The notes below the pieces were generated by a model. It was not told the DNA's origin. It searched no databases and saw only the letters and a list, made by a program, of their open reading frames with translations. Position numbers and translations under genes: made by a program. Shown here in pieces: positions 27,238 through 58,375 of a DNA stretch of 59,434 bases. The stretch lies in IMG/VR virus record IMGVR_UViG_3300017645_000001, positions 1-59,434 of that record. The stretch is one strand, 5' to 3'. How positions within the stretch are numbered: the first letter of the stretch is position 1; each line of letters begins with the position of its first letter. Source of the DNA: a virus. Lineage: Duplodnaviria; Caudoviricetes.

Positions 27238-29229
27238 TTACCTGTTCAGGTCTTCAGCAAACCGCGAGAAGCGGTCGTTGCCTTTTGGCTTTGCCGACGA
27301 CGGGGGCGCTGAGTTGTCAGCCTCGACAGCCGCTCGCCTACGGCGCGCGCCCAGCTTGATATGCTGCACGTTCAGCATGTAGCCCGCGGCGGATGCCATC
27401 GCCTCGGCGTCGAGGAAATGGTTGTCGCGGGCCTTCTCAATCCAGACCGGCTTTCCGCCCGGTCCGCGCACCATCGCCTCGGCCACGATCTGTCGGCAAT
27501 AATCCTCGGTTACGTCCTCGGGCAGATGCCACGCGCCCGGTTGATCGAGCGGCCACGCCAGGCGTTCATGCACCCACGATTTCCAATGGTTCGGATCGAG
27601 CCGGATAAGGTCGAGCCCATACTTCGACTGCTTGCCCTGCTGCGTGACCTCGATCTTTCGCCGCACCAGCGGCGTCACCATCGCGTGGGAACTGCCCTTT
27701 GTCGCAAAAACGAAGCTGCGGAAGCGCCGCGCGAACTCGTAGACGCGATTAACTGGCACATCGAGCTTCTTGCCAGGCCGAAATCCGCTATCGACGAACG
27801 CCAGCTTGATCAACAGGCCATCGATCGGCGCGGTCAGCAGTTCTGCAAGATCATCCCAGACCTGCGGCTCCGCAGTGTTGCCCCACAACTCACCAAAACC
27901 GACCAGCCACGACGTAGCGCGGGCGCCCCATGCCCTCACCACCCACGGGATACGGTTCTTTTGAACGTCTCCACCGAAGGTCAGAAACAGCGCCTCATCC
28001 GGCACACTGCCGCAGGAATACGGCTCAGCGCGGGCCTTGATCGCCTCCCACTCCGGCAGATCACCACCATCGTCGGTGAATACCTCACCGAATCCAGCGT
28101 TGATAGCGACTTGGATCTTCTCAGCTTCGCCAGACTTGAGCGCCGTCAGGTATTCTTCAGCCCGCTCGCCAAGTGTTACGAAGGGCGAAGCAAGGCCGCT
28201 GCACCATCGCGAGAGCGTCGCGCTATCAGGCGGATCACCAACGACGTTGCCGTCTTCGTCGATCGTCTGACCTGGCGCCACATAGCGGCCAGCGGCATTC
28301 ATGCCGGCCTTGTCTTCCTCCCGAATGACGCAACCGTTCTTCGGGCACTCGATCCAGGCATCACGGCGCGCTTGAGCAGGCGTCGCTGCCTTCGGCCACC
28401 GCAGCAGCTTGAACCGCGGCACAAACCACTCACCGCAGTGAGGGCAGCGCCACACCCAATGATATCGCGTCCCCTCCTGCCAAAGCTTCCAGATGGGCGA
28501 GAAGTCCTCACCGGGGTCTTCGACCATCTTCCAGAACTCTAGGCCGTTCGCCGCGTCCCGCTCGATTTCGACCAGCCCGCGCGACGGCGTCGACGTAACC
28601 CCGACGACAAAGTCCGCGTAGGTGTAGCCGCGGGCCTCGACGAGCCCGAGCGGGTCGCCCTGCCCCTGCACATCGGTGCGCATCGCATCGTATTCGTCGA
28701 TTAGCGCGATTGCAGCCGGGTCGGACTTCAAAGCCGTCTGCGAACCCGCGTGCGCCAGACGCACCCGGACACCCGCAACGCGCTTGAGCGTCCGTTTCTG
28801 CCGCTTCCCCTCGACGCCGCCGATCATCTTCGTGTGCAGCGACGATTGCCGGAAAAGTTCGTTCAGCCGCGGCTCGAACTGGTCGGTATTGAACTCCTTC
28901 GACGGCCCGACATACAGGATTGGGGCTGGCCGGTTATCGAGACGCTCCCCGATGATGTCGAGAAAGGTCTCGGTTTTGCCCATCTGGGCACCCTCGACCT
29001 GAACAACCCGGCGATATCGCTGATCGCCAAAAGAGCGCCCAAACGGCACGTTGTAGGCCGCAAGATACGGGTCGCGCCGACCGGGCCTACCGGTTTCCGG
29101 TCCGTAAACCCTCTGCCGGCCCCACTCGTCAGGCTCCTGTCTCCTCGCTCTCCACAAGCACTTCGCGGCCAGCCCGTAAATCGCGCTCCGCTTGCTGGAA
29201 GCGGTCGCGACAGCGATCAATTGCCCCAT
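27238..29229 (-). CDS. Terminase large subunit (GpA family); true start may be slightly downstream
   Basis: GAQMGKTE Walker A, IDEYD Walker B, TSTP, CPHCGE, NHFLDAE. Confidence 0.95.
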   Translation of the reverse strand: MGQLIAVATASSKRSAIYGLAAKCLWRARRQEPDEWGRQRVYGPETGRPGRRDPYLAAYNVPFGRSFGDQRYRRVVQVEGAQMGKTETFLDIIGERLDNRPAPILYVGPSKEFNTDQFEPRLNELFRQSSLHTKMIGGVEGKRQKRTLKRVAGVRVRLAHAGSQTALKSDPAAIALIDEYDAMRTDVQGQGDPLGLVEARGYTYADFVVGVTSTPSRGLVEIERDAANGLEFWKMVEDPGEDFSPIWKLWQEGTRYHWVWRCPHCGEWFVPRFKLLRWPKAATPAQARRDAWIECPKNGCVIREEDKAGMNAAGRYVAPGQTIDEDGNVVGDPPDSATLSRWCSGLASPFVTLGERAEEYLTALKSGEAEKIQVAINAGFGEVFTDDGGDLPEWEAIKARAEPYSCGSVPDEALFLTFGGDVQKNRIPWVVRAWGARATSWLVGFGELWGNTAEPQVWDDLAELLTAPIDGLLIKLAFVDSGFRPGKKLDVPVNRVYEFARRFRSFVFATKGSSHAMVTPLVRRKIEVTQQGKQSKYGLDLIRLDPNHWKSWVHERLAWPLDQPGAWHLPEDVTEDYCRQIVAEAMVRGPGGKPVWIEKARDNHFLDAEAMASAAGYMLNVQHIKLGARRRRAAVEADNSAPPSSAKPKGNDRFSRFAEDLNR

Positions 29230-29710
29230 TCAGAGCACCTTCAATCGCCAACCGGGCGTCCAGATCGCGCGTCGCAGCAGCAGGGATGCCAGCAAGCTCA
29301 GAGCGAAACGTGCCAAGAATGTCGGCAACCACAGCAAAAACGTCATCGGTTTCGATAAGCTGGCCGTCTTCGCGCGCCATCCTCTGCTCAATTGCCCGCC
29401 GCTTCGTGGCCGCCAGACGAGCCTGCGGTGTGTCGGCCGCCGCCTTCTGCTCAAGATCGTCCCGATAGGCCAAATATCCGTCCAGAACGTCGCCGATCCG
29501 GTAGGCATTCGAGCCCGATTTCTTGATCCAGCCGGCCTTTGTAAGCTGCCGGACCCGCTCGCCACTGACTTTGATGATCGATCCAGCGTCGTCGGTGGAG
29601 ACGACCAGAGCCCGCCAATCTGTGACTTTCGCATGTCCCGATTTGGCGGGCCTTTTCGATTTCGATCCAGACTTTCGTCCCGATGGGCGTTTCGGCGGGC
29701 TCAATGGCAA
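29129..29710 (-). CDS. Terminase small subunit (Nu1-like)
   Basis: Winged HTH VSGERVRQLTKAG then coiled coil, EDGQLI; overlaps terL start. Confidence 0.8.
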   Translation of the reverse strand: MPLSPPKRPSGRKSGSKSKRPAKSGHAKVTDWRALVVSTDDAGSIIKVSGERVRQLTKAGWIKKSGSNAYRIGDVLDGYLAYRDDLEQKAAADTPQARLAATKRRAIEQRMAREDGQLIETDDVFAVVADILGTFRSELAGIPAAATRDLDARLAIEGALNGAIDRCRDRFQQAERDLRAGREVLVESEETGA

Positions 29711-29793
29711 AAACCCTAATCAAAACAGCGATTTCCAGAACCCGGGTATGCTCGAAGATCGGGCCGATCTATCGCCGCACTGCAAAGCACAAA

Positions 29794-29810
29794 AAACACG
29801 GTCCCTTTTC
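29794..29810 (+). promoter_or_regulatory. Protospacer-like target of the spacer at 37537-37567, in the terS-upstream (cos/late promoter) region
   Basis: AAACACGGTCCCTTTTC is the exact reverse complement of 37550-37566. Confidence 0.8.
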
Positions 29811-29860
29811 GCATCCGCGAACATTTGGGACCCACTTTCTTCGCACCCGCGAGATAGGCG

Positions 29861-30421
29861 TCAGAGCTTGCGGAGCACCTCGTGCTCCAGGCGTGCAGGC
29901 AGGTCTCTCTCCACTGTGGCGTGGAAGACCTTGAGGCTATCGCCACTCACCAACTCTTCGGCGATGAAGAGACCGCTCTTGACGGTCTTGAGCGGGTAGC
30001 GGGCCTTGCCTGCCCTGACGACTACGGCGCCGTTCATGCGCAGAGCGACACGGTTCGGGAAGTGTCCGCCCTTGGTGAAGGTCTTGGGGTAGAGCCTGCG
30101 CTTGCTCCAAGGGGCTGCGGTTACGCCTGCCCTTGTTTCTCGGGCAGAGAAGAACTTCAAGCGGATATCCCCGCCCTTGGCCTTGATCGTGTAGCCGGTG
30201 CTGCCGTGGAGCGCGGCGCGTGTGCTGGTGACCGCCTTGTTGATGGTCTTGCGCTTGAGCCCTGTCTGCTTGGGCAGGACTGCCCGCATGGCGGTGCGGG
30301 CCTTGTCCCCGGTGTGGTTGATTGCCCGGCGCATGGCGTCGGGCTGATCCTTTGCCAGTGCCGCGAAGCGGTTGCCGAGGTCTGCTAGAGCCTTGGCGTC
30401 AACGCGGACGTTGCTGAACAT
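29861..30421 (-). CDS. Minor tail / gpZ-like protein
   Basis: AMRRAINHTGDKART...QTGLK...RLEHEV. Confidence 0.7.
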   Translation of the reverse strand: MFSNVRVDAKALADLGNRFAALAKDQPDAMRRAINHTGDKARTAMRAVLPKQTGLKRKTINKAVTSTRAALHGSTGYTIKAKGGDIRLKFFSARETRAGVTAAPWSKRRLYPKTFTKGGHFPNRVALRMNGAVVVRAGKARYPLKTVKSGLFIAEELVSGDSLKVFHATVERDLPARLEHEVLRKL

Positions 30422-30600
30422 CAGCGCCTCGCAAGGTTGGCTTTGGCAGTAGCGATCTTGGACCGAAAGTCGCGGGCATCGTCGCGGATGGTGGCCGCGA
30501 TGTCGCGGACGCTGGCGCCGACGGTCTTGAGGTCGCCGCGGGCCACGGCTTTGGCAGCGGCCAGCATGTGCTGGCCGCGTTCGTTGCAGCGACAGCCCAT
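30421..30600 (-). CDS. Small hypothetical protein (59 aa; absent from ORF track)
   Basis: MGCRCNERGQHMLAAAKAVARGD...; stop overlaps the next ATG. Confidence 0.5.
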   Translation of the reverse strand: MGCRCNERGQHMLAAAKAVARGDLKTVGASVRDIAATIRDDARDFRSKIATAKANLARR

Positions 30601-30869
30601 AACGCTTTACCGTGCCGCTGCGCCCAATCTCACAGGAAGCACCTTTACCGGCCAAGGTGGCAGATAGTACATGCCGCGCCCGAGCCAAGAAAAGCCAAGA
30701 CGGAGCGAGATGAACCGTGGCGGCCACGTCTGATTGTCCGCCTTACCGTCTGCGTTTACGGGAATCCACTTCCACCCAATGAACGGGAGAAAACTGCCGA
30801 ACAGCGGATAACCGCCCTGACCACCAAGGCTCAAGATAAATTCGCCCGTATACTCGCAACGCCAAATCT

Positions 30870-31067: not shown

Positions 31068-31273
31068 GCGGCGAGGCTCACATTGACGGCCTTGGCGCCT
31101 TTCGTGTCTTCTTTGACGTCGAAGGAAAGCCTTGTTCCGTCTACCAGTGTCTTCCCGTTGATGCCGGCGGCATCGAGAACCTTCGCGTGGAGGAACACGT
31201 CCTTATCGCCTTCCCTCTCGATAAAGCCGTAGCCCTTGTCCGAATTGAACCACTTCAGTTTACCTGTTGCCAC
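31064..31273 (-). CDS. Cold-shock domain protein
   Basis: GKLKWFNSDKGYGFI (RNP1), DVFLH (RNP2). Confidence 0.95.
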   Translation of the reverse strand: MATGKLKWFNSDKGYGFIEREGDKDVFLHAKVLDAAGINGKTLVDGTRLSFDVKEDTKGAKAVNVSLAA

Positions 31274-31274
31274 G

Positions 31275-31937
31275 TCACGCTCCTACGGGCGCCGGCTCCA
31301 ATCCGAGCTTGCGCCGCTTCTTTGCCTCGATCTTTGCCCGTCGCTCGGCTTGATGCTGAGCCCAGGAGAAGTCTCTTTGTTCAGGAAGATCGGACCAGAC
31401 CGATTCAGTTCGTTCAGTCACTCGTTGTCCGATCGTATGTGTTTCTTGTCGCTCAAGGCTCGAAGTTGCGCAACAATGATTGCTTGTTGTGGGCTTCAAC
31501 AAAATTTGGTCGTTGTCTAGATCGCCGGCGATTTTAACAAACAACCGCTCAAGCCGGTCATAGGCGGTTCGCCGCTGCCATCCAAATGCGCGACATACAC
31601 GTGAGAATGAGTGACCACTCGCTGCGCTGAACGCCCAGAACCAAACTAAACGGCGCCGGTCCTCGACAACATACTTTGGAGTCCATTCGCACAGCACTTC
31701 GTCATAGCGACTGATAGCATCGGCAGAAGGCGGCAACCGCCGGAACCGCATTTCGCGTTCCTCAGCAAGTCGCTTGCTCCCCCATCCGCTCATATCCGCG
31801 AAAGAGTGAACGTACTCCGGCCAGAAAGTGGTTTTCTCAGATGGTCCAAAACGGCCGAGCGGAGAACGCCTTTCAACGTCGGCAGCTTCGACGAAACGCG
31901 CACGCACAATTTCGGCGGTCCACATGTTCGTCCTCAT
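31275..31937 (-). CDS. Putative late transcription regulator (DUF6362-like, C-terminal HTH)
   Basis: WT...V..RF.EAA...WPE...PS..AISR.DEV..W...RRLVW; Q-like position. Confidence 0.65.
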   Translation of the reverse strand: MRTNMWTAEIVRARFVEAADVERRSPLGRFGPSEKTTFWPEYVHSFADMSGWGSKRLAEEREMRFRRLPPSADAISRYDEVLCEWTPKYVVEDRRRLVWFWAFSAASGHSFSRVCRAFGWQRRTAYDRLERLFVKIAGDLDNDQILLKPTTSNHCCATSSLERQETHTIGQRVTERTESVWSDLPEQRDFSWAQHQAERRAKIEAKKRRKLGLEPAPVGA

Positions 31938-32359
31938 ATCAATGTCGGCTGCGTTTCCGGCTTAAAATGCACTCTGAGTTGATCTAGCAGCAACGTAGCG
32001 ATCGTGTCATGCGCTGCGACGACCCCCTTATTGGCTTTTGCCCTGGAATACATTTCAGCCAAGTCGGCGCCATCCAGCACTTCAAGAAACTTACTTGCGT
32101 CATTGGCATACCAGGTCGGATTCTCGGCCATGATCCGGCTTACTGCCTTTATGACTGGCGCAATCAGCATGTTGCGATTGTTCTCGCTCTCCGTCAGGAC
32201 GGTCAACACGTCACGTAAGTGCGTCTCGCCTTTCACGCGTAGAATCTTTGCCAGCGTGTTGCCGGCCGCCGTCTGCATCGACGTAAACGGCCGATGTTGC
32301 GCGGGCTGCACAACGGTGACGCCGAAATCTTGGCAGATTTTGCAAAGATCGTTTGTCAT
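31934..32359 (-). CDS. Conserved phage hypothetical protein
   Basis: Coupled ORF, GE.HLR.VL....ESENN. Confidence 0.65.
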   Translation of the reverse strand: MTNDLCKICQDFGVTVVQPAQHRPFTSMQTAAGNTLAKILRVKGETHLRDVLTVLTESENNRNMLIAPVIKAVSRIMAENPTWYANDASKFLEVLDGADLAEMYSRAKANKGVVAAHDTIATLLLDQLRVHFKPETQPTLI

Positions 32360-32760
32360 GCCGGGAACTGGATCACGTTCTGCGGCTCAGTTTGACGCGA
32401 TCTATCCTCTTCGTATGCCCGCAACAGGTCTAAGCCGCTCCAAAGGCTAAATTCGAATAAGATTTCTTCGTCTTCAACTGCCACGGCCGGATGGCGTTCT
32501 CGAACATTCCTTAGCACAAGGTGATACGACGGCGCCGTCCCGCCTCGGTATCCTCCGGCAAGGATGGCAATACTGGCCAATACCTGTTCACGCTCCAAAT
32601 CTCTCAACGCATCCTTAATTGCCTCAAGTCTCACTAACGGCGATACCTCTCTGAACGCGTCCAAACTATTATTATTGACCACTTCTGCTGACCCGCCCTC
32701 CCATTCAGAAAAATGGCATCTGATTTTCAGCGTGAGCCCCTTCGGATGATTTTTTATCAT
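32356..32760 (-). CDS. Hypothetical protein, AT-richer than neighbours
   Basis: Coupled to flanking genes by ATGA overlaps. Confidence 0.55.
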   Translation of the reverse strand: MIKNHPKGLTLKIRCHFSEWEGGSAEVVNNNSLDAFREVSPLVRLEAIKDALRDLEREQVLASIAILAGGYRGGTAPSYHLVLRNVRERHPAVAVEDEEILFEFSLWSGLDLLRAYEEDRSRQTEPQNVIQFPA

Positions 32761-34124
32761 TCAACACTCCCGAACGTGTAAGTGCGCCCGTTGAAAGGCA
32801 TCGTCAGCCATTGGCCGTCGTCGTCATCGCGCATCTTGAGCGCGCCAATTTCAGCTTGGTCTCGCCACTTCTCCATCTTCCCGGCCCATTCATCGTGAGC
32901 GCGGTGATCGGATTCCTCCGGTTCGCGCTGTTTCAGCCATTTCCGCGGCAGCGTGACGCCGAGCATCACGTCGCTAGCCTGTTTGATGGCGTCACCGCCG
33001 TACAGCGCCTGATCCGTGAACCGCCAGGTATTGGCGTTGCCCTGAGACCCGCGAGTAAGCTGCGCAAGCAGGATGATCGGGATATCCAGTTCCTTGGCTA
33101 GTTCCTTAAACGCCATCGCCGCGTATTCGACCGTTTCGACCTTGGTCCAGCGCGGATTTTCTGGCCTGACAAGCAGGGCATGATCAATCGCCACACAGCC
33201 GAGCCCGTGTTGGCGGTGGAATGATCTGATCTTCGAGCAGATGGCCGATGTTCGCTGCTGCCCGCAGTCGTCGATATAGAGGCGAACACTCTGAGCCTCG
33301 TCGGCGGCCTCCCGCAGGCTGTCAAAACCGAACATGTCGATATCGCCGGCCCGCTGCTTCCTGACCGGGATCTGAGTCCAGGATGACAAGGTCCGCATCG
33401 CAATCTGCGTCGCGGTCATCTCTTGGCTTATGAGCAACGCAGGCTTTCCGTTCGGACCGCTGGCCGCATGACGGAGCATCTGCAGGGCCAGTGTGGTCTT
33501 CCCCTCGCCGCTCCGCGCAGCGATCGTTACAAGGTCACCGCCCATCATCGGGCCGATCAGGCGATCCAATTCGAGGATGCCCGTGGTGACGCCGATCTGG
33601 ACTTCGCCCTTGCACCGAAAGTTCTCGGCCGTTCGATCCAATGATGTCCGCACCGCATCGCCGAGCCGGGTTATGTGCGACGACACCCCATCGAACACGG
33701 TCGAGAGCAGGACTGTCTCGATGTCCGCAATGATATCGCTGATCGATTTGGACGGGTCCTGAGCAGCGTTGCGAGCCGAGACCGCCATATCCGCGATCCT
33801 GCGACGGCCGAACGCCTCCAAAATGCTGTCCGCATAATCCTGCGCCGAACCTGCATCCTCTGCGTTGGCGCGCAGCACAGCGATGATCGCTGCCTTTGGT
33901 CCGCCCTCGTCTGGATATTCAGGCTGGATTCCAGGATGCGCCGCCAGTGTGGTCAGCGAGACCCTGCGACCCTTCTCGGCAAGATCGATGATCGCCTTGT
34001 AAATATCCCGGCAGGCCGAGCTGACCAGCATCTCAGGCTTAACCGTCATCACAGTCCAGACGGATTCGGGAGACCGAAGCAGGCAACCGATAAAGGCACG
34101 TTCGATGGCGAGGAGGTCGCTCAC
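32757..34124 (-). CDS. dnaB: Replicative DNA helicase
   Basis: AARSGEGKT, SQEM, AIDH, KELAKELDIPIILLAQL. Confidence 0.92.
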   Translation of the reverse strand: MSDLLAIERAFIGCLLRSPESVWTVMTVKPEMLVSSACRDIYKAIIDLAEKGRRVSLTTLAAHPGIQPEYPDEGGPKAAIIAVLRANAEDAGSAQDYADSILEAFGRRRIADMAVSARNAAQDPSKSISDIIADIETVLLSTVFDGVSSHITRLGDAVRTSLDRTAENFRCKGEVQIGVTTGILELDRLIGPMMGGDLVTIAARSGEGKTTLALQMLRHAASGPNGKPALLISQEMTATQIAMRTLSSWTQIPVRKQRAGDIDMFGFDSLREAADEAQSVRLYIDDCGQQRTSAICSKIRSFHRQHGLGCVAIDHALLVRPENPRWTKVETVEYAAMAFKELAKELDIPIILLAQLTRGSQGNANTWRFTDQALYGGDAIKQASDVMLGVTLPRKWLKQREPEESDHRAHDEWAGKMEKWRDQAEIGALKMRDDDDGQWLTMPFNGRTYTFGSVE

Positions 34125-35185
34125 GCCGCCTCTCCCACGCCGTTCTGCCAGAGGTCGAGATAATCGAGACCGGCTGGCGGCTCAGCGACGATCAGGCAAT
34201 CCACGCTTGCCGCGGCGAGCTTCTCCTTCAGTGTGAGAGCCGCTTTGCGGCCGGCCGGGATGGCAGGGACAAAACCTCCATCCTTGCGCCGCATCGGGCG
34301 GTCGCCGTCCGGGTAAATATCAACACGATCAACAAAGAGCGGCGCGTCGAACCCGGTCATCCCCGCGGTCGAGAGCACCGACCAAACTGGATAGGCAAAC
34401 TCGATCAGCGCCCATGCACCGAGAGCCGTTCTGACGCCCTCGGCGACGCCGATCCGCGCAGCGCCGCCGCCAAGCCGCACAGCTCCGCCAGATACCGGGC
34501 CAAGCCCGAGCTTCTGCAGTTCAACGTCGGCCTTCTGCCCATCCGGCGAGATAAACTCCCGCCAGACGCCGATCTGATCGCCATGCAGGTTGTCGACGCG
34601 GGCCACAAGCGCAGGCATCCGGCCCTTGTCGGGATACGGCAGCGCTGGATGAAAGCCCAAACACTCCGGCCATCCTCCGGGCGGCGTCGGCAATCCAAAG
34701 TTATGCAGATAGGTCTCAGCCAAGGTGCCAGCGATCGGCTTGGCCTCTGACCAGATGCGTTGAGCCGTGGCGAGCGTGTTCTCCTGATATGCCCGTTCCT
34801 CGGCGTCTCGCTGGCGCTGAGCGGCTTCCGCTTCCTGCCTGCGCCGATCTCGCTCCGCCCGTTCTTCCGCGCTCAGCGGCCTCGCCTTGCCGTTTGGCGG
34901 TGGCTCCCCGGTCAGGCTCTCGCAAGCCTGTGTAAACGACAGGCCGGCAACGTGCATCACGAGGCCGATGGCATCGTTGCCACCTTTCGCGCCGCGGCAG
35001 TTCCAGACTGACTTCGCCGGATGGATGGACATTCGGTCGCGCCCGCCGCACGCCGGGCACGGCCCCATCCATTCAGCACCATGGCGCTTGAGTTTGGCAC
35101 CGTGCTGCGCTGCCGCCGTCAGCAGGTCGACGGCGTTCGCGTCTTCCTTCCATTTGGCGAAGCGTTCGTCGGCGGCTCGGCTCAT
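34121..35185 (-). CDS. DNA primase (Zn finger plus Toprim)
   Basis: GPCPACGGRDR...WNCRG; VAEGVRTAL; YPDGD. Confidence 0.88.
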   Translation of the reverse strand: MSRAADERFAKWKEDANAVDLLTAAAQHGAKLKRHGAEWMGPCPACGGRDRMSIHPAKSVWNCRGAKGGNDAIGLVMHVAGLSFTQACESLTGEPPPNGKARPLSAEERAERDRRRQEAEAAQRQRDAEERAYQENTLATAQRIWSEAKPIAGTLAETYLHNFGLPTPPGGWPECLGFHPALPYPDKGRMPALVARVDNLHGDQIGVWREFISPDGQKADVELQKLGLGPVSGGAVRLGGGAARIGVAEGVRTALGAWALIEFAYPVWSVLSTAGMTGFDAPLFVDRVDIYPDGDRPMRRKDGGFVPAIPAGRKAALTLKEKLAAASVDCLIVAEPPAGLDYLDLWQNGVGEAA

Positions 35186-35187
35186 GG

Positions 35188-36294
35188 CTAAATCCGCATC
35201 GGCATCAGCACGTAGAGCGCGCCGTTGCCGTCTTTGGATTTGATGATTGTCGGTGAGCCGGCCTGATCGAGGTCCATTACAACCGTGTCGCCCTCGATCT
35301 GGGCGACGATGTCGAGCAGATATCGGGCGTTGAAACCGATCTCCAACGGTTCAGCGTCATAGCCGGCCTCGACCTCTTCCGACGCACTGCCGCTGTCCGG
35401 GTTTGTTACCGATAGATCGAGATTGCCTTTGGACAGCGTTAGCTTGGTTGCCTTACCCTTCTCGCTCGACACCGTTGCGACGCGATCAATGGCGGCGTGA
35501 AACTCGGCGCGGTCGATCTCCAAGGTCTTGTCGTTGCCTTGCGGTATGACCCGACGATAATCGGGAAACGTGCCGTCGATAAGCTTCGAGGTTAGAACGG
35601 CATCCCCACAAGTTACCCTGATCTTGCTGTCGGATAGTTCGACAGTGACGGCCTCAGCACCGTCCAAGAGCCTCTGGATTTCCCCGACCGTCTTGCGCGG
35701 AATAATCACCCCGGACATGTCTGCGGCGCCGGCGGGAAGATCAAGATCAACAAGCGCCAGTCTATGGCCGTCCGTCGCCACGCCGCGCAGTTTACCGTTC
35801 TCGACGTGCAGATAGATACCGTTGAGGTAGTAGCGGGTTTCCTCTGTTGAGATAGCGAACTCAGTCTTTTCAATCAGCCGCCGCAGGTCGCCGGCCGCGA
35901 TGTCGAACCGGGTCGGCAGCTCTCCCGGTGCCATGTCGGGAAAATCGCTAACTGGTAGAACCGGCAGTTTGAACCGTGACCGACCGCAAGCCACGGTCAA
36001 AGTCGCGTCATCGGCCTTCAACGAGACTTCCGATCCCTCCGGCAGCTTTCGAGCGATATCGTAGAGCGTCGTGGCCGGCACGGTGATGGCGCTCTTACTG
36101 GCTGACGCCACCTCCACCGAAGCAACGACCTCGATATCAAGGTCCGTGGCGGTGATTGCCAACGTCTTGCTCGAGTTGCGTAACAGGACGTTAGCCAGGA
36201 TCGGGATTGTGCTTCTCCGAGGCACGACGCGATGCACACGGCCAAGGCAACCGATCAACGCATCACGGCTCAAAACGACATTAAAACCCGTCAC
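35188..36294 (-). CDS. dnaN: DNA polymerase III beta sliding clamp (phage copy)
   Basis: RRSTIPILANV, ATDLD, STEETRYYLNG, ATDGHRL, FPDY.RVIP, VLMPMR; GTG start overlapping upstream stop. Confidence 0.95.
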   Translation of the reverse strand: MTGFNVVLSRDALIGCLGRVHRVVPRRSTIPILANVLLRNSSKTLAITATDLDIEVVASVEVASASKSAITVPATTLYDIARKLPEGSEVSLKADDATLTVACGRSRFKLPVLPVSDFPDMAPGELPTRFDIAAGDLRRLIEKTEFAISTEETRYYLNGIYLHVENGKLRGVATDGHRLALVDLDLPAGAADMSGVIIPRKTVGEIQRLLDGAEAVTVELSDSKIRVTCGDAVLTSKLIDGTFPDYRRVIPQGNDKTLEIDRAEFHAAIDRVATVSSEKGKATKLTLSKGNLDLSVTNPDSGSASEEVEAGYDAEPLEIGFNARYLLDIVAQIEGDTVVMDLDQAGSPTIIKSKDGNGALYVLMPMRI

Positions 36295-36809
36295 AGCCCC
36301 ATCTCCATCGTCCGCAATTCCCCGTTCAGCCACCACGCCACTCCAAGTGCGTCGCTGGCATCCTTCGATTTCAGGCCCGGCACAATCCGTTGCGCCAGCG
36401 CCAACACGTCGTCCTTGGTTGCCCGGCCACTGCCGGTGAATGCCTTCCGCCATGAAGCTTGATGGACCTCCCGGCATTCGAGGCCGAGCCGGGCGCATGT
36501 CTCAATGGCATGGGCGCGAAGCCCGTAAAGCCGGAGATACGTCTTCATCGTGACCGGGTTCATCTTCTCGCCCGGATTTGCGCCACGCCGACGGTCCGCA
36601 ACCTCAATGTCAGTACGTAGCGGCTGCTCTACTGCCACCATCTCAACGCGATGATCGAGCAAGGTCCGCCGAAGCCACTTGCGGAAGGAGAGAAAGACCT
36701 CTCCCTCCGTTTTGCCGGTGGCTCTGAACGCCTCAACATGCAGGACACGCGATCCGTCAAGGATCGCGCACCCGGTTGTCGTGGCAATGTCGAGGCCGGC
36801 CACGATCAT
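36291..36809 (-). CDS. RuvC-like Holliday junction resolvase
   Basis: GLDIAT, VAVEQP, WRK.FTG.G.A.K, DASDALG. Confidence 0.85.
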   Translation of the reverse strand: MIVAGLDIATTTGCAILDGSRVLHVEAFRATGKTEGEVFLSFRKWLRRTLLDHRVEMVAVEQPLRTDIEVADRRRGANPGEKMNPVTMKTYLRLYGLRAHAIETCARLGLECREVHQASWRKAFTGSGRATKDDVLALAQRIVPGLKSKDASDALGVAWWLNGELRTMEMGL

Positions 36810-37070
36810 CTAGGCCGCTCTTTTCTGATGGCTGAGCGCCTTCTTGCCTGCTCCTGCCTGAATGAGCTTGGCCTCAACCTCGACAAGGCGACCCTGGTTA
36901 AGACGGGATTCGAGGCGAACCTTGACGGCGGTATTCACCCGGCCAAATGCTTCGGAAGCGAGCTTGCCCTGTTTCAAATCCGCCTTGCGCTGTAGCGCCT
37001 CTGCCGCCAGCGCCGACGCGCCTTCGATGACCGCATCAAGCGCAGCGAGTTCTTTACTGATAGTGCTCAT
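36810..37070 (-). CDS. Hypothetical protein
   Basis: 86-aa helical ORF tightly coupled in the operon. Confidence 0.6.
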   Translation of the reverse strand: MSTISKELAALDAVIEGASALAAEALQRKADLKQGKLASEAFGRVNTAVKVRLESRLNQGRLVEVEAKLIQAGAGKKALSHQKRAA

Positions 37071-37075
37071 TGTGA

Positions 37076-38482
37076 TTATGCCTTCTTCAACGCCCGTTTT
37101 GCTTTGCGAACTGCCTTGCCAGCGGCAACGAGCTTTCCGCCGATGGCAATATTCGGTTGATCATCCTCAATGATGTCACACCGAATCCCTGCTTCCTCGG
37201 CCTTGTATCTGAGCATCTGAACCGCGAGGCCCGGTGCTTGGCCGAGAATATGTCTGTTGAGAGATGAAACCGTCTTGACGTTTGCGCCCCAGACCTTCGC
37301 GTCTCCACGGGGCGTAGCTGTAAGCGCCCTTACGTCGCTGGCGATTACCGAGATATCGCAAGCGGAACGCACGATGCTTGTGGACCATGCATGCAGCGCG
37401 TGCTTGCGCCGTCGCGCCTCCATCGCTCGAAGCCGAGCAACACGTCTTTTCTCACGACGCCAACGCCATGAGAACTTGCGGTACCGACGATCCCGTTCTG
37501 ACTGTACTCGATCTGCCAAATCGCCGGTGACGACACCCTGGATCGGAGTGAAAAGGGACCGTGTTTCCCTGTCGTCACCACCCAAATCGCCGGTGACGAC
37601 ACGGGATGTCGTCTTATGTTGTTGAGCTTGGGTGGTAATTTGCTCTTTCGAGCGGGCGAGACATTCGCCCTTCGCGCGCTCAACACGCGCAAACTCGTCA
37701 ATTAGATCAAACTTGATCTCTACTTTATCTGCACCCGCCGTCATGCGGGGCTTCATCTTCACAACGATTGAAACCCACCACGCGCCGTCACGACGCATGA
37801 TGACGCAATTCCGAATTGATTCAGGATCGGCGGGGAACTTGCCACGAGCCTTTATAAAGCCGGGGACGCCTTTGACATACATTCGCCAGATGTTTGACGA
37901 TTTACAATTTGCGGGTGTCTCGACCCGACATCGCCGTCTTCGGACTAAAACTGTTCTTTCATTCACCCCACAATTCGAGGTGGTCTCGGCCTGATCAGAA
38001 GATAACCCCCTCGAATTGCGACGTGATTTGCCGTTACGGCAGGCCGTGAACCGGCCCTTTTCGGATTTCTCCGAAAACTCTGAAGCGGAATACAGACGCC
38101 ATCCTCTTCCATGTTCTGGAAAAGGAATGCTGTTTCCGTCCTTTGTCCTCTTGTATCGCGGATAACCTGACGCCGCGCCCGCGCCAGACTTCGCGCGCTT
38201 GAAGAACGCTTTGAACGCATCGTCCAGTTTGAAGATAACTTGCGCCGGAGTACTTGCATTCAACTCCTGCCACTCCGGGCACTCGCGGCGCAAATGCTTG
38301 ATCTCTTTGCAAAGATCGTACGCGGATAGCGTCTTCCCTTCGCGGCGATAAACGTCCTCACGACGCTGCAAAGCAGCATTATACAACTCGGCGCACATCA
38401 CGGCATGACGATCTAGCGCGCGTTCCTGCTCGCGATTTTGGTAAAGTTTGAACGTGTAGCGCCGAGTCACGGGGTCGGACAT
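37076..38482 (-). CDS. tnpB: Nuclease-dead TnpB/Cas12-like RNA-guided protein with two in-frame insertions
   Basis: RRYTFKLY...LYNAAL..R...LDDAFKAFF.R...GYPRYK, WWVSI, LNR.IL...MLRYKAEEAG. RuvC-I and RuvC-II acidic residues replaced (VEIKFDL, VIASDV); Zn finger and RuvC-III absent. Confidence 0.85.
   Translation of the reverse strand: MSDPVTRRYTFKLYQNREQERALDRHAVMCAELYNAALQRREDVYRREGKTLSAYDLCKEIKHLRRECPEWQELNASTPAQVIFKLDDAFKAFFKRAKSGAGAASGYPRYKRTKDGNSIPFPEHGRGWRLYSASEFSEKSEKGRFTACRNGKSRRNSRGLSSDQAETTSNCGVNERTVLVRRRRCRVETPANCKSSNIWRMYVKGVPGFIKARGKFPADPESIRNCVIMRRDGAWWVSIVVKMKPRMTAGADKVEIKFDLIDEFARVERAKGECLARSKEQITTQAQQHKTTSRVVTGDLGGDDRETRSLFTPIQGVVTGDLADRVQSERDRRYRKFSWRWRREKRRVARLRAMEARRRKHALHAWSTSIVRSACDISVIASDVRALTATPRGDAKVWGANVKTVSSLNRHILGQAPGLAVQMLRYKAEEAGIRCDIIEDDQPNIAIGGKLVAAGKAVRKAKRALKKA
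37516..37602 (-). CRISPR. Intragenic mini-array B: 35-nt repeat, 31-nt spacer, 21-nt partial repeat
   Basis: GTGTCGTCACCGGCGATTTGGGTGGTGACGACAGG (37568-37602, hairpin GTCGTCACC/GGTGACGAC); spacer GAAACACGGTCCCTTTTCACTCCGATCCAGG; exact 21-nt second copy at 37516-37536. Confidence 0.75.
37603..37672 (-). ncRNA. Scaffold/anti-repeat preceding mini-array B
   Basis: Hairpins GGGCGA-ATGTC-TCGCCC and GCTC-GAAA-GAGC; TTACCACCCAA (37628-37638) can pair with repeat TTGGGTGGTGA. Confidence 0.5.
37904..37991 (-). CRISPR. Intragenic mini-array A: 36-nt repeat, 30-nt spacer, degenerate partial repeat
   Basis: GGCCGAGACCACCTCGAATTGTGGGGTGAATGAAAG (37956-37991, ends ATGAAAG); spacer AACAGTTTTAGTCCGAAGACGGCGATGTCG; second copy GGTCGAGACACCCGCAAATTGT, 17/22 identical. 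Confidence 0.6.
37992..38080 (-). ncRNA. Scaffold/anti-repeat preceding mini-array A
   Basis: GCAATTCGAGGGGGTT (38004-38019) pairs 15/16 (with G-U) with repeat GACCACCTCGAATTGT; hairpins at about 38029-38041 and 38058-38077. Confidence 0.5.
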
Positions 38483-38485
38483 TGG

Positions 38486-39016
38486 TCAGTCCTCGTCGCC
38501 TTCTTCATCGTCTGCGTCGAGTTCGTCCGCCGCCATCGAGAGAATGATGTCCCTCTCGGCGCGGCCCTGCCGGAATGCGTTCAGCCATGCCTGCCCGGCC
38601 TTGGTATTCAGATCGTGCGGGTTTGATGCCTCCGTCACGAGGTCATCGACGTCGAGACCTGCCGCGCGACCGTCGAGTTCAGCCTTTTCGTCCAGCGGCT
38701 CCAACGTCGTGCCAAAATCCAGGTTGAGTTGGTTCGACGTGATGCCGTGCCGCATGATCCGCAGATAGCGCGTGACCTCCTGCGTTTCTTCCAGCCATGC
38801 CTCGGGATCGCCGTTCTTGACGATGGACAGCGCCCGCTTCGCAGCCTTGAGATGGACGCCTTTTCCCTCGGCGTGCTTGAGAACAGACCGCAGCGTGCCG
38901 TGATGACTCGCCGCTTCGTCCTGCGCTTTCCTGATCTTGCTCAGATTGACCGCGATGACCGATTCATCGCTCGGCATGTTCTGAGTTACTCGTTCCTGTA
39001 CTGCTGCTTCTGCCAT
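38486..39016 (-). CDS. Hypothetical protein with GapR/DUF2312-like helical N-terminus
   Basis: RSVLKHAEGKGVHLKAAKRAL; C-terminal GRAAGL...NPH...AW...F..G. Confidence 0.55.
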   Translation of the reverse strand: MAEAAVQERVTQNMPSDESVIAVNLSKIRKAQDEAASHHGTLRSVLKHAEGKGVHLKAAKRALSIVKNGDPEAWLEETQEVTRYLRIMRHGITSNQLNLDFGTTLEPLDEKAELDGRAAGLDVDDLVTEASNPHDLNTKAGQAWLNAFRQGRAERDIILSMAADELDADDEEGDED

Positions 39017-39025: not shown

Positions 39026-39625
39026 CTATGCCTGCTTCACCTTGTCTCGATGCAACCAACGGACTTCCGCTCTGCCGTCGTATCCTTTGAGAAATACGAG
39101 CCAGCAGAAGTCCTGCTTCCCGCCTGACGGCTCTTTACCTTTGGCCTCGTATTCCAAGACCAGCGGTCCCGGCGGCATTGAGGGCCGTGGCGTCAAATAC
39201 CAAAGCCGGTAGAGCGGAAGGTCTTTGATCCAAGCGCCGGCCGCGTTAAGACGACGGGTCGGCATAATCATCGCCACTTTGCGCGAGGCACGACGATGCG
39301 CTTGCCGCGCGAACTCTTCGCTCAGATCAAATGGCTGATTCATGACGATGTTGTCGGCTTCGATGCCGGACGTCAGAAAATCGCAGATTGCGTAGTAATC
39401 ACAGCCGCGATCAACGATGTCGCAGCCGCGCGCCACGTAGCCCGCCTCGCGAGCAGCTTCGACAATTCGACCAGACCCGCAGCATGGATCGAGAATATCG
39501 CCATCAAACGGCTCTTCCTCGAACAACCGACGTGAACACCAGCGGTTTTCGACGTACCATTCGCGCTCTTCCCTAGCCCAGGAATGAGCGGCAACAGCTT
39601 TCGCTACGGTGGCAGTCTCGATCAC
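39026..39625 (-). CDS. DNA methyltransferase-like protein
   Basis: ILDPCCGSG SAM motif; motif IV reads NQPF. Confidence 0.75.
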   Translation of the reverse strand: MIETATVAKAVAAHSWAREEREWYVENRWCSRRLFEEEPFDGDILDPCCGSGRIVEAAREAGYVARGCDIVDRGCDYYAICDFLTSGIEADNIVMNQPFDLSEEFARQAHRRASRKVAMIMPTRRLNAAGAWIKDLPLYRLWYLTPRPSMPPGPLVLEYEAKGKEPSGGKQDFCWLVFLKGYDGRAEVRWLHRDKVKQA

Positions 39626-39785: not shown

Positions 39786-40304
39786 TCACGCCACCCTCCG
39801 CGCGGTCCGGGCCGCGTCTCGAAGCGCTCGGCGCTCAGACTTGGTACCGACGCCGATGCTCAATTGGGTGTGCGCGGGGCAATAGCTTGAGCCGGGGCGC
39901 TTGATATGGCCGCAGAACGTGTGCTGCCCGGTTTTGACGTCCCGCTCATCATCGGGCCAACGGCAATGAAAGGGGTTCAATTCGATAAGCGGAATCCGCT
40001 GAGAAACGACGTCAGCGGCGCGTGGCGTGAACGGGGCAGCCCCGATCTTCGGCACAATCACAACCTTTGGGCCGATTGGTGCTTTGACCGAAGTTGTGGG
40101 CTTTGGTGGTGGGGGCTTCCGCTCGATCGGCTTGCCGGTCTTGGTGTATCGCAGTTTCCGATCGTTCAGCGCGATCCCCCGCCGATGGCAGAGGCCGATA
40201 ATCGCGTTGCGCGTGACGCCGAGACGCCTGCCCATCTCAGCAGCACTCAAATGCTCAGCCGCGAGACTGCGCACCAACTCCACTTGGTCGGGGTGCCACG
40301 CCAT
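39786..40304 (-). CDS. gcrA: GcrA family cell-cycle regulator (phage copy)
   Basis: W...VE.....S...G.RLGVTRNAIIGL.HR; CRWP...FCG.....SSYCPAH. Confidence 0.9.
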   Translation of the reverse strand: MAWHPDQVELVRSLAAEHLSAAEMGRRLGVTRNAIIGLCHRRGIALNDRKLRYTKTGKPIERKPPPPKPTTSVKAPIGPKVVIVPKIGAAPFTPRAADVVSQRIPLIELNPFHCRWPDDERDVKTGQHTFCGHIKRPGSSYCPAHTQLSIGVGTKSERRALRDAARTARRVA

Positions 40305-41166: not shown

Positions 41167-41391
41167 TCATGCCGCGCTCCGAGATATGCAGATATCCACG
41201 AAGCGGCTTGCTGAGACCCGGCCACGCGTCACCCGCTCAATGTCGCGCGCCAGCGCTACGGACGGGTTTCTCTCCCCATTCAGCACTCGCGTCAGAGTGC
41301 TCGGAGCCCTGCCCATCCGAGCAGCCAGCGACGACAGGCTTTCGCCTGTTTCGCGGAGGTAGATCGTGAGTTCATTGTCCAAATCAGCCAT
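41167..41391 (-). CDS. Cro-like HTH repressor
   Basis: SLSSLAARMGRAPSTLTRVLNGERNPS; divergent from cI. Confidence 0.88.
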   Translation of the reverse strand: MADLDNELTIYLRETGESLSSLAARMGRAPSTLTRVLNGERNPSVALARDIERVTRGRVSASRFVDICISRSAA

Positions 41392-41402
41392 AAGACGAGA
41401 TT

Positions 41403-41476
41403 TTGCCTATTTGGCAAGATTTAGCAAGGACAATTTTTGCCTATTTGGCGGTGGAGCAAATTTGCCAAACAGGCAA
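41403..41476. promoter_or_regulatory. OR-like operator triplet (TTGCC-N5-GGCAA)
   Basis: TTGCCTATTTGGCAA 41403-17, TTGCCTATTTGGCGG 41437-51, TTGCCAAACAGGCAA 41462-76, between cro and cI. Confidence 0.85.
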
Positions 41477-41485
41477 TCTGCCAAG

Positions 41486-42157
41486 ATGGCCGGAAACCGT
41501 ATAGAAGAACTGCGAAAAGCCCAGGGAATGACGCTAGAGGAACTCGCGGACGCCGTTGGCCTCTCGGTTCCCTACGTTCAGCGGCTCGAAAAGGGGCAGC
41601 GGAACCTATCAATCAAGCATTTGGACAGTTTCGCGGCGGCCCTAAAGGTCAGAGCCCGTGAGATCGTGACCGATGAGAATGATGGCCATATCGATTCAAT
41701 TCAGGTCGCGGCTGACCTCGGCAGCCCCCATATGCGGTCAGAAGATGTCGCAGCATCAATAGATGCCGGACCGAAGAAAACGGTCCGTGTAAAGGGCTAC
41801 GTCGGGGCCGGCGGAGAAGCACATTTCTATAGGCTATCCGACGAAGCGTTCGAGGAAGTCCTTGCCCCCGAAGGCTCGACCGATTGCACGGTCGCTGTGG
41901 AAATTCGCGGCACAAGCTGGGGTCCGCAAATGAACTCCTGGCTCGTCTTCTACGACGACGTGCGTTCACCAATCACAGAGGACCTATTGGGGAAGCCTTG
42001 TGTCGTCGGCCTAGCCGATGACCGTATTCTGATCAAAGTAATCCAACGCGATCGCAATGGCGATTATCGCCTCGTGTCGAACAACCCATCAGAACCAGAT
42101 ATCGAAGATGCGCAGATTGAGTGGGCAGCGAAGGTCACATCGATGAAGCCACGCTAG
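41486..42157 (+). CDS. CI-like repressor (XRE HTH plus S24 peptidase domain)
   Basis: IEELRKAQGMTLEELADAVGLS...LEKGQR; VGAG cleavage motif; GTS...LIK. Confidence 0.92.
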   Translation: MAGNRIEELRKAQGMTLEELADAVGLSVPYVQRLEKGQRNLSIKHLDSFAAALKVRAREIVTDENDGHIDSIQVAADLGSPHMRSEDVAASIDAGPKKTVRVKGYVGAGGEAHFYRLSDEAFEEVLAPEGSTDCTVAVEIRGTSWGPQMNSWLVFYDDVRSPITEDLLGKPCVVGLADDRILIKVIQRDRNGDYRLVSNNPSEPDIEDAQIEWAAKVTSMKPR

Positions 42158-47008: not shown

Positions 47009-47044
47009 GGTTAAACCCCGTGCAAAGTCGGGTGTAAAATTATT

Positions 47045-58334: not shown

Positions 58335-58375
58335 AGCTTGGAAGGCTGCTGCTCTACCATTGAGCTACACCCGCA
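58335..58375. repeat. Attachment core, right copy (truncated 5' half of tRNA-Gly)
   Basis: Identical to 273-313; lacks the T-arm and acceptor 3' strand. Confidence 0.95.

Follow-up and report, generated by a model that had tools for sequence, protein, structure and literature searches.

Nuclease-dead derivatives of TnpB and Cas12, namely TldR, Cas12m and dCas12f-sigmaE, form a recent class of natural transcription regulators, and to our knowledge their role in phages is established for one case only, the remodelling of flagellin. TldR proteins descend from TnpB, have lost the RuvC triad together with the C-terminal zinc finger/RuvC part, are often encoded by prophages, and bind DNA uncut and repress transcription (Wiegand et al., PMC10705468; 10.64898/2026.09.22.753285); their guide RNA has a scaffold of about 100 nt and a short 3' guide with seed-proximal recognition (PMC10705468). 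Cas12m (type V-M) is small, carries an inactivated RuvC and silences by blocking transcription, its loci comprising an array, many without adaptation genes, on plasmids and some prophages (PMC11656645), and dCas12f-sigmaE activates transcription in a guide-directed manner through a linked sigma factor (PMC13472631). Altae-Tran et al. (2023; PMC10691335) described about 50 independent recruitments of TnpB into CRISPR systems, with inactivated branches, and a zinc-finger-less TnpB clade, RIIIr-4, enriched in viruses; virus-borne mini-arrays, in turn, consist of 1-4 spacers on phage genomes directed against related viruses (PMC11656645). The comparisons drawn below with these systems are comparisons by description.

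The locus discussed here lies in a phage sequence of 59,434 nt (IMG/VR record IMGVR_UViG_3300017645_000001), which as a whole is called the window (Table 1). By description, its effector resembles TldR in its descent from TnpB and in the loss of both RuvC catalysis and the C-terminal zinc finger/RuvC part, and its covarying scaffold, with a 17-nt anchored match, may be the counterpart of the cognate guide RNA of TldR. It departs from TldR in that the guide module stands in frame inside the ORF, whereas in TldR it is downstream of the gene, in that many members of the family repeat its last 36 nt in alternation with 30-nt spacers, in the manner of a CRISPR array, and in that it is proposed to target the boundary of the phage's own packaging operon rather than a host promoter. 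With Cas12m it shares a small type V effector, an inactivated RuvC and the lack of adaptation genes (no cas1 or cas2 among the 17 ORFs scanned between 25.6 and 40.9 kb of the window), but Cas12m arrays adjoin the gene, Cas12m2 comes only 18th in the fold search (E 2.6e-7), behind TnpB and Cas12f, and Cas12m was not retrieved by the effector's sequence profile. Like the dCas12f of dCas12f-sigmaE it is a nuclease-dead miniature protein of TnpB/Cas12f type whose guide is here proposed to act on transcription; that system has a sigma factor and a guide outside the ORF, whereas here the guide is within it and a scan of 17 neighbouring ORFs turned up no gene for a sigma factor.

By both sequence and fold the nearest proteins are the TnpBs of IS200/IS605, which have the same layout of scaffold and 3' guide. 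The omega-RNA of TnpB also overlaps coding sequence, namely the 3' end of tnpB, whereas in the present effector, which has a dead RuvC, no transposase beside it and a phage rather than a transposon context, the scaffold sits in mid-ORF in a loop after RuvC-I, a second copy occupies a WED/REC loop, and the repeats are arrayed. The effector family may belong among the type V-U* variants or the RIIIr-4 clade of PMC10691335, the accessible part of which makes no mention of arrays inside an effector ORF, and no description of in-ORF guide arrays was found in the literature searched. The viral mini-arrays use or inhibit the Cas proteins of the host, whereas here the effector is phage-encoded and the array is within its coding sequence; the solitary repeat units described for viruses do have a likeness in the solitary repeat-like copies of one related phage (L083).

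Table 1. Coordinates of the features discussed, in positions of the window.
Feature	Position	Strand	Basis or remark
Portal gene	25637-27232	-	downstream of terS; lambda-family portal
TerL	27238-29229	-	downstream of terS; GpA_ATPase, GpA_nuclease
terS (small terminase), longest ORF	29129..29710	-	phrog_57, E 4e-18
Terminator-like imperfect palindrome	29782..29850	-	RNA fold -33.3 kcal/mol, z -2.1
Proposed target	29794..29810	+	+ strand identical to guide
288-aa gpZ/tail-completion-like gene	29861..30727	-	PF06763, 24.5 bits; phrog_27, E 4e-20
86-aa ORF directly after effector gene, conserved	36810..37070	-	35% identity over 54 aa, E 3e-7, to ORF in same position of L004
Effector ORF, 468 aa (P0001), TnpB/Cas12f-like	37076..38482	-	profiles, fold, alignments
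Truncated terminal repeat	37516..37537	-	5' arm and loop present, 3' arm missing
30-nt spacer (guide)	37538..37567	-	nt 2-18 (37550-37566) match target
HV2 guide-RNA scaffold	37568..37693	-	covariance model R1, 113.9 bits; fold z-score -3.25
HV1, second, degenerate scaffold copy	37959..38077	-	R1, 40.9 bits

The effector and the guide-RNA module within its gene

The N-terminus of the effector matches PF12323 (HTH_OrfB_IS605, E 1.2e-9), and the protein scores 108.9 bits against NCBIfam NF040570 (guided_TnpB, cut-off 100), 22.5 bits against PF01385, below the cut-off of 30.5, and 31.4 bits against NCBIfam C2c8, far under the cut-off of 350; partial PADLOC hits are to Cas12f (PDLC01700, 9.4e-21, residues 332-440 only) and Cas12u4 (1.6e-17). 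Its top Foldseek hits are ISDra2 TnpB (E 1e-15) and ISFba1 TnpB, with a dCas12f structure in 4th place. An earlier sequence-only reading of this DNA had called the effector dead, and the alignments and fold search agree, in that the fold is of TnpB/Cas12 type and the RuvC site is not intact: the position of the RuvC-II Glu is A, P or S across the family and S in the window, the RuvC-II segment reads 'viapaik' in the family against 'GFEDLNV' in RdCas12n, the RuvC-III Asp position is occupied by Lys in the window effector, and the CxxC...CxxC zinc finger is absent from the alignment. The AlphaFold model is a confident TnpB fold except at residues 146-194 and 279-318, precisely the two array-bearing segments, where pLDDT is below 50. 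Leaving out these loops, the effector comes to about 400 aa and the system is compact and self-contained. Its gene has phage replication, methylase and resolvase genes as neighbours, among which no fliC, oppF or csrA was found in the scan, and its expression in the lysogen is uncertain because it sits in a presumed early operon.

The HV2 scaffold, which codes for effector residues ~264-305, consists of a three-helix leader (37604-37693) and a 36-nt hairpin repeat (37568-37603), and the window itself has a single complete repeat, a single spacer and a truncated repeat, with perfect 21-nt direct repeats (37516-37536 and 37582-37602) lying 66 nt apart. Terminal repeats are likewise degenerate in two relatives, L085 and L082. 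The family layout is a covarying scaffold of ~126-150 nt with the 36-nt hairpin repeat at its end, followed by 30-nt spacers, and it is these last 36 nt of the scaffold that are iterated as the 'repeat' in relatives. What had been called 'mini-array B' is a real guide module rather than a chance repeat, as the family-wide arrays and the covarying scaffold attest, but it is no free-standing mini-CRISPR array, since it is in frame in the effector ORF; its appearance is rather that of an omega-RNA/sgRNA-type scaffold (126 nt) plus guide, and the 87 nt in question would be the 3' part of a guide-RNA gene in the disordered HV2 loop. The degenerate HV1 copy, probably the region earlier called 'mini-array A', has a putative guide without an anchored match of at least 9 nt in the window, and a gathering-threshold scan of the window with Rfam returned two tRNAs only.

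Intragenic arrays occur in 15 non-duplicate loci of the effector family, with repeat periods of 57, 60, 66 or 72 nt that are divisible by 3 in 36/36 cases, whereas the extragenic array periods of the same family leave remainders of 0, 1 and 2 in 42, 35 and 31 cases; in-frame stops number 0 in 1069 codons of intragenic array, where the two remaining frames have 17 and 41. That the frame is always kept, that in-frame stops are nil and that the segments are predicted to be disordered would also be expected if the 66-nt units were simply fast-evolving coding repeats of a disordered linker, with no nucleic-acid function, a reading already disfavoured and, to our minds, scarcely credible in view of how the DNA itself varies. 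Perfectly conserved blocks of 35-40 nt alternate with unrelated blocks of 30 nt, and compensatory base-pair changes are present although the encoded peptides differ. Across 13 loci 88.1% of cells in the scaffold are paired, compared with 69.6% after shuffling (0/500 shuffles as high) and 39-50% in slid controls, and 16/23 scaffold base pairs show double changes. In 57 sources the covariance model R1 makes 39 hits, every one of them on the effector strand, among them loci that had no part in building it. Moreover, L004 carries an extra copy of the 88-nt leader and two repeats outside the ORF, from which it follows that the unit functions as nucleic acid; L082 too has this leader and these repeats outside the ORF, and spacers of L004 and L085 match distant phage genes, which again speaks against a purely protein-level repeat. 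In members without an intragenic array, ordinary multi-spacer arrays adjoin the gene, and the family as a whole has arrays upstream of, inside or downstream of the effector gene.

A 17-nt match in front of the packaging genes

Of the sequence AAACACGGTCCCTTTTC the window has exactly two copies, one at 29794-29810 (+) and the other at 37550-37566 (-), and allowing up to 2 mismatches adds no third site, which bears out the earlier claim of a 17/17 match of spacer nt 2-18. The copies are on opposite strands, the one in the gene reading as the sense of the minus-strand ORF, and because the plus strand of the target has the guide sequence, pairing of the guide RNA would be with the minus strand. 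The spacer takes its boundaries from a repeat set to 36 nt (minus strand) through homology and the covariance model, and with these boundaries the match does fall at the scaffold-proximal end of the guide, as had been supposed, whereas the 'weaker similarity' reported past spacer nt 18 is dismissed because only 3/12 positions agree there without gaps, which is not significant.

The site was said to be non-coding and about 85 bp upstream of terS, and so it is: it lies 84-100 nt before the start of the terS ORF, in a 150-nt gap with the last gene of the early/replication block on one side and terS on the other. The ORF at 29861-30727 (-) stops just upstream of the target, and 11 nt past that stop begins the palindrome, with stems GGUCCC/GGGACC and UUCGC/GCGAA, preceded by an A-tract and followed by a U-tract; the target spans its 3' arm and the beginning of the U-tract. 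For gpA-type (lambda-like) terminases, cos is usually in the region upstream of terS.

How surprising the match is depends on what is counted. That a 17-mer match within 59 kb is very unlikely by chance, as was asserted, does not hold for an unspecified pair, but it does for this spacer when the match is anchored to the repeat. Inverted exact 17-mer pairs number 5 in the window, where no longer inverted pair exists; in Markov simulations the average is 1.1-1.6 such pairs per window, with single runs up to 6, and the four other pairs are presumably due to chance. It may be argued from these pairs, and from the lack of any longer one, that the spacer of a genuine module lacks a target in this genome, the 17-mer being one accidental inverted pair; spacer positions 19-30 are unmatched, a target-adjacent motif (TAM) is not shared between protospacers and most family guides have no self-match, all of which would fit. 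We nevertheless regard this as distinctly unlikely, since the match hits the one 30-nt guide in 59 kb and begins at guide nt 2, its partner site is within the 150-nt intergenic gap at a regulatory boundary, and the L004 guide shows that guides of this family can match their own phage genome. When the whole 1407-nt gene was compared with the rest of the window, the sole match of at least 15 nt was this 17-mer. In an anchored test, in which 139 spacer-like sequences were compared with their own loci and the match had to start within 2 nt of the repeat, only 2/139 reached at least 12 nt, namely L004 (30) and the window (17); the longest matches in the controls were 13 nt (139 reversed sequences) and 12 nt (417 shuffled), so that 0/556 reached 14 nt, which also counts against chance.

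The guides of relatives and their targets

The first guide of L004 matches inside the phage's own replication-initiator gene at 30/30 positions, the only spacer hit in its 5-Mb genome, and the first guide of L085 matches a major-capsid gene at 28/30, on another contig of the same MAG; the expectation that homologous cassettes would aim upstream of terS finds no support in these two, and in the window the matched part of the spacer is shorter (17/30, vs 28-30 nt in these two). Linkage of the effector to repeat-spacer arrays, one criterion for type V systems, was found across the family, and spacers matching mobile elements, a second criterion, are seen in the phage genes matched by L004 and L085. 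Anchored matches were lacking for 32/34 first guides, the DNA compared being mostly short contigs, and no spacer self-match was found in L012, a complete 62-kb phage, or in the fragments L015 and L016. A target-adjacent motif common to the three protospacers is lacking, as their sequences on the 5' side are GCACAAA, AATGCGTG and CGTGGCCC.

Relative to the local transcript, the guide is antisense in the window and in L085 but sense in L004. The window guide is complementary to the transcript strand at a terminator-like hairpin, and as the L085 guide is likewise antisense to the capsid mRNA, one can imagine pairing of RNA with RNA, in which the guide would bind the nascent 3' arm and U-tract of the terminator, block termination and switch the late operon on, with the protein as an optional chaperone. 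We think this highly improbable: TnpB, TldR and Cas12f, to which the effector is related, act on DNA, the L004 guide reads in the sense direction of its target gene, and a simple promoter/terminator scan of 29400-30100 flagged nothing, the hairpin included.

A different purpose for the guide would be as a weapon between phages, the spacer having been taken from a related competitor to silence superinfecting relatives, in the way of phage mini-arrays and Cas12m, and the self-match being residual homology of a constrained terminator or cos element that plays no part in self-regulation. Multi-spacer arrays in relatives are typical of adaptive or competitive systems, the L085 guide has 2 mismatches to a capsid gene on a different contig that perhaps belongs to another phage (the 9.4 kb downstream in L085, a stretch with masked N, yielded no homologue of TerL, portal or capsid), the match falls on the 3' arm and U-tract of a structured element and with that on the part likeliest to be kept between relatives, and beyond the 17-mer there is a weak, gapped similarity (GGAT/ATCC). 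This explanation we judge unlikely, because the L004 guide matches its own genome perfectly, because no IMG/VR phage was found with either half of the window spacer as a protospacer, and because a perfect 17-nt seed-proximal match would still bind the phage's own DNA if TldR rules apply. In exact scans of IMG/VR the window 17-mer had 0 hits and the 19-mer of the spacer's 3' half had one, inside a long ORF of an unrelated AT-rich 4.4-kb contig, which by our own estimate is at chance level for a database of this size; 24-mers of the L004, L015 and L016 spacers hit their own arrays only.

Two other candidate sets of targets were set aside. The seeming mass self-targeting by the ordinary arrays of L083 and L035, whose own contigs gave 8 and 3 additional hits, really reflects solitary repeat-like copies and not spacers, and the 12 true spacers tested from the ordinary array of L083 had no match; a 27-nt match in L086 was rejected as a target, being a GC-rich palindrome made up partly of repeat sequence.

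A predicted switch at the early/late boundary

The explanation that we favour, and hold to be somewhat likelier right than wrong, is that an in-frame guide-RNA gene inside a dead TnpB/Cas12-like effector directs that effector to a predicted binding site upstream of terS, and the best reading of the protein is as a putative RNA-guided binder of the TldR/Cas12m kind, aimed at the boundary between the early and late genes of the phage. The host of the module is a temperate phage of lambda-like type with a tRNA gene as its integration site, and the effector mRNA would carry the scaffold of ~126 nt, then the 30-nt guide, then the truncated repeat. The effector would bind this RNA, as TnpB, TldR and Cas12f do theirs, the ~17 scaffold-proximal nt of the guide would form an R-loop with the minus strand at 29794-29810, and the target DNA would be left uncut. 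Since the site overlaps a terminator-like palindrome in the usual cos region, we propose that the bound complex would control either read-through or initiation of the head/packaging operon or the access of terminase, on the phage's own DNA and on that of close relatives with the same site; the steps that we infer here are processing of the RNA, assembly of the RNP, its binding to DNA and the effect on regulation. Guides of TnpB and TldR are ~16 nt long, or 9-11 nt in one clade, with a seed of ~6 nt (PMC10705468), and 17 matched nt would therefore amount to a complete guide in a protein of this type.

Extending this to the family is more tentative, and we would put it at less than an even chance: the dead effectors of temperate phages from soil Alphaproteobacteria may represent an undescribed architecture in which guide-RNA scaffold and repeat-spacer array are translated as disordered loops of the protein and the guides both programme the phage's own developmental switch, at the early/late boundary or the replication initiator, and exclude relatives. 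As scaffold and array are translated as effector loops, the effector mRNA would also be the pre-guide RNA, and guide processing, which would destroy the message, would provide built-in autoregulation; the arrays might then capture stages on the way from omega-RNA to CRISPR. Several things would be new if this is borne out, including a guide-RNA gene and array held in frame within an effector ORF, where selection to keep the frame can be measured, a guide that a phage directs at its own packaging-operon boundary, and a single family with arrays before, inside and after the gene, which bears on the emergence of CRISPR arrays out of omega-RNAs. If the proposed binding is true, lytic development or superinfection exclusion would include an RNA-programmed step.

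The conserved 86-aa ORF directly after the effector gene has no PHROG or Pfam match and may encode an accessory protein. Among named phages there was no DNA match to the effector gene or the target region, and by protein only the N-terminal quarter of two Thermus phage transposases matches the effector. Contigs from four soil runs were compared with 29600-38600 of the window: runs X7 and X9 contain relatives of ~97% that cover the target region, with thin cover of the array, and X2 is identical over both sites.

A guide module inside the effector gene

The repeats lie within the minus-strand ORF of the effector, a protein that carries the HTH_OrfB_IS605 domain and scores above the threshold of the NCBI guided_TnpB model, and whose AlphaFold model (mean pLDDT 76.5) finds its best structural match in ISDra2 TnpB (E 1e-15), then ISFba1 TnpB, dCas12f and Cas12f, with Cas12m2 at rank 18. 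Aligned with active TnpBs and RdCas12n, it has the RuvC-II glutamate substituted (VIAPxI in the family, VIASDV in the window) and lacks the CxxC...CxxC zinc finger; the RuvC-III aspartate position is a lysine. The protein therefore has a TnpB/Cas12f-type fold in which the RuvC site is predicted not to work, in line with the dead effector proposed by the sequence-only reading.

The model turns disordered precisely where the two segments that bear arrays lie (residues 146-194 and 279-318), and the homologues form a family with these hypervariable segments (HV1 and HV2), many members having internal repeats of their own. DNA of related loci, drawn from viral contigs, genomes and metagenomes, consists here of repeat-spacer arrays, identical 35-40-nt blocks alternating with unrelated blocks of about 30 nt. 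Intragenic repeat periods are divisible by three in 36/36 instances (57, 60, 66 and 72; 15 non-duplicate loci), whereas those of family arrays outside the gene fall 42/35/31 across the three remainders; the 1069 codons read in frame contain 0 stops, while the two alternative frames contain 17 and 41, and the conserved protein blocks flanking the arrays share one frame. Together with the predicted disorder, this means that the intragenic arrays are maintained as translatable loops of the effector; members without one have just a linker of about 60 nt at that place and bear ordinary arrays downstream of the gene, and in other members arrays stand upstream of it.

Ahead of the first repeat, some 90-115 nt form three helices, both in the window and in the relative L004, with compensatory changes between them, and the duplicate of L004 outside the ORF comprises exactly the 88-nt leader and two repeats. 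Across 13 aligned loci, leader and first repeat hold 23 pairs, 16 of them changed on both sides, and 88.1% of scaffold cells are paired, compared with 69.6% in shuffles (0/500 as high) and 39-50% with slid partners; G-U pairs favour the sense strand. A covariance model (R1) derived from these loci gave 39 matches over 57 sources, every one on the strand of the effector; some fall at loci outside the model-building set, and one is the degenerate copy in HV1 of the window. By covariation and these matches, the putative unit looks like an omega-RNA/sgRNA-type scaffold of about 126-150 nt whose final 36 nt recur as the "repeat", with a guide after each copy. A repeat meaningful at the protein level only is disfavoured by the scaffold covariation, the extragenic copies and the identities between spacers and genes; the helices persist where the encoded peptides differ (over helix 2, both KGECLAR and SGGSPAC). 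Since the scaffold-guide module is in frame, the effector mRNA would also be the guide precursor, and guide processing that cuts this message could provide negative feedback. Full-text searches of the literature turned up no account of a guide scaffold or array lying inside an effector ORF.

Features of the window and arrays at loci of effector relatives (L-numbers)
Feature	Position or locus	Strand	Detail
Effector ORF	37076-38482	(-)	468 aa
Scaffold in HV2	37568-37693	(-)	
Guide (spacer)	37538-37567	(-)	30 nt
Second, degenerate scaffold copy, in HV1	37959-38077	(-)	R1 40.9 bits
terS	29129-29710	(-)	193 aa; phrog_57, E 4e-18
DNA polymerase III beta clamp	35188-36498	(-)	
DNA methyltransferase	39026-39625	(-)	phrog_799
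GcrA-like cell-cycle regulator	39786-40304	(-)	
CI-like repressor	41366-42157	(+)	
att repeats	273-313 and 58335-58375		41 nt, exact, direct; overlap tRNA gene 242-312
Second tRNA	58496-58577		
Intragenic array	L004/L081 (same locus)		3 repeats
Intragenic array	L015		4 repeats
Intragenic array	L016		4-5 repeats
Intragenic array	L012		4 repeats, period 72
Intragenic array	L085		
Intragenic arrays	L086		in HV1 and in HV2
Intragenic arrays	L157, L167		
Ordinary arrays, few hundred bases downstream of gene	L002, L003, L005, L013, L035, L083, L084		periods 71-82
Arrays upstream of gene	L157, L161, L202		periods 60-62

The duplicate leader and repeats of L004 (6419-6640; L081 11604-11825) carry two further spacers and sit between the effector and replication-initiator genes. 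In L086 the HV1 array has 28-nt repeats at period 60, and its spacer 1 includes 19 nt found unchanged in the repeat of the same gene's HV2 array (1727-1758 and 2226-2309). A hairpin motif, CCGGGCTCGCCCGG..AGCGAGAG, recurs in irregularly spaced copies directly 3' of the effector gene in L001 (11277-11600), L006 (10734-10830) and L007 (10230-10620), and belongs in one class with the repeats that make up the ordinary arrays of L002, L003 and L083, the last with 15 repeats.

The guide match and its chance expectation

The window holds AAACACGGTCCCTTTTC at 29794-29810 (+) and 37550-37566 (-), with no third site even at up to two mismatches, so that the 17/17 match claimed from the sequence stands, starting at base 2 of a spacer flanked by perfect 21-nt direct repeats (37516-37536 and 37582-37602, 66 nt apart). 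The accompanying claim, that a 17-mer match is very unlikely by chance, fails for any such pair, five inverted exact 17-mer pairs (none longer) being present where simulated windows (Markov orders 1, 3 and 5) average 1.1-1.6, but holds for a match anchored in the guide: an unspecified pair is unremarkable, and it is the position of this one that is remarkable. Between the effector gene (1407 nt) and the rest of the window it is the sole match of at least 15 nt. When 139 spacer-like sequences from 33 arrays were each compared with their own locus (anchor at most 2 nt from the repeat), anchored matches of at least 12 nt were confined to L004 (30 nt) and the window (17 nt), and the longest in controls were 13 nt (139 reversed) and 12 nt (417 shuffled). 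The observation is confirmed, and the window guide's match is more than chance; a chance match is among the rival readings.

With first guides defined by R1 scaffold ends, the same two, window (offset 1) and L004/L081 (offset 0), had such matches among 34 in the DNA available, a count in which non-matches say little because most loci are short contigs. The L004 guide targets its own replication-initiator gene, 2.3 kb off, the sole spacer match within a 5-Mb genome, and the first guide of L085 matches 28/30 in a major-capsid gene on a different contig of the same MAG, possibly not the same phage. No spacer self-match was found in L012, a complete phage, nor an anchored match of at least 9 nt in the window for the 30 nt after the HV1 scaffold copy. 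A spacer derived from a competitor, its self-homology incidental, is another rival; IMG/VR scans with five spacer words returned no protospacer.

Solitary repeat-like copies are scattered on both strands in phages with a downstream array (L214, G006:C447 20001-40000; L035/L215/L216), at least eight in L083's contig and one L035 copy in a terminal repeat; apparent multiple self-targeting by the L083 and L035 arrays was rejected, its matches being these copies and not spacers.

The target in its prophage, and a possible mode of action

The surroundings are those of a lambda-like prophage, the 41-nt repeats being likely attL and attR of about 58 kb, and its minus strand reads GcrA-like, methyltransferase, effector, 86-aa ORF, RuvC-like resolvase, beta clamp, primase, DnaB, gpZ-like, terS, gpA-type TerL and lambda-family portal. 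Between terS and the gpZ-like gene, the target is 84-100 nt upstream of the terS ORF, as had been read, and 51-67 nt past the gpZ-like stop. In lambda, whose terminase is of the gpA type, cos lies near the terS-upstream region; since TerL here is of that type, cos would be expected near the target. On the minus, transcribed strand the region is predicted to form a two-step hairpin (GGUCCC/GGGACC around UUCGC/GCGAA; -33.3 kcal/mol, z -2.1) with an A-tract ahead and UUUUUU behind, the target taking in the 3' arm and the first part of the U-tract, and a simple terminator scan called no terminator there. The guide has the plus-strand sequence, so that its partner in DNA would be the minus strand; it would also be antisense to a leftward transcript, and RNA-RNA antitermination is a further rival.

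The best-supported reading is an RNA-guided DNA binder like TldR or Cas12m. TldRs, as PMC10705468 describes them, are TnpB derivatives that have lost the RuvC triad and C-terminal zinc finger and repress transcription with scaffolds of about 97 nt, guides of 16 nt or 9-11 nt and a seed of about 6 nt, so that the 17-nt scaffold-proximal match would be a full-length guide for this type of protein. A complex bound at 29794-29810 would occupy the single gap that separates the early/replication block from the packaging operon; there it could impede terminase or stop read-through or initiation, the purpose perhaps being self-timing or exclusion of relatives; the earlier interpretation along these lines is partly supported. 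The 2023 TnpB/Cas12 survey (PMC10691335) counts about 50 CRISPR recruitments, with inactivated branches and a virus-enriched clade without the zinc finger, and the effector family may be among its groups. The system is best classed with the nuclease-dead, RNA-guided TnpB/Cas12 regulators, as a variant whose guide architecture, inside the ORF, is unexpected.

The phage beta clamp, methyltransferase and GcrA-like genes point to an alphaproteobacterial host. An exact direct repeat of 23 nt that contains a palindrome (TTGCC..GGCAA; 41400-41422 and 47042-47064) may be an operator, since its first copy is at the start of the CI-like gene. The 86-aa ORF (36810-37070, minus strand), directly 3' of the effector gene, had no family match and may encode an accessory protein; its position and sequence are kept in L004 (35% identity over 54 aa, E 3e-7), and by eye a similar small ORF follows the effector gene in L001, L002, L006 and L007. 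The phage or relatives of about 97% identity are present in soil metagenome runs X1-X10 of several study codes (window 29600-38600), and many short contigs of these runs stack up over 35018-35619 in the beta clamp gene, host homologues being their probable source.
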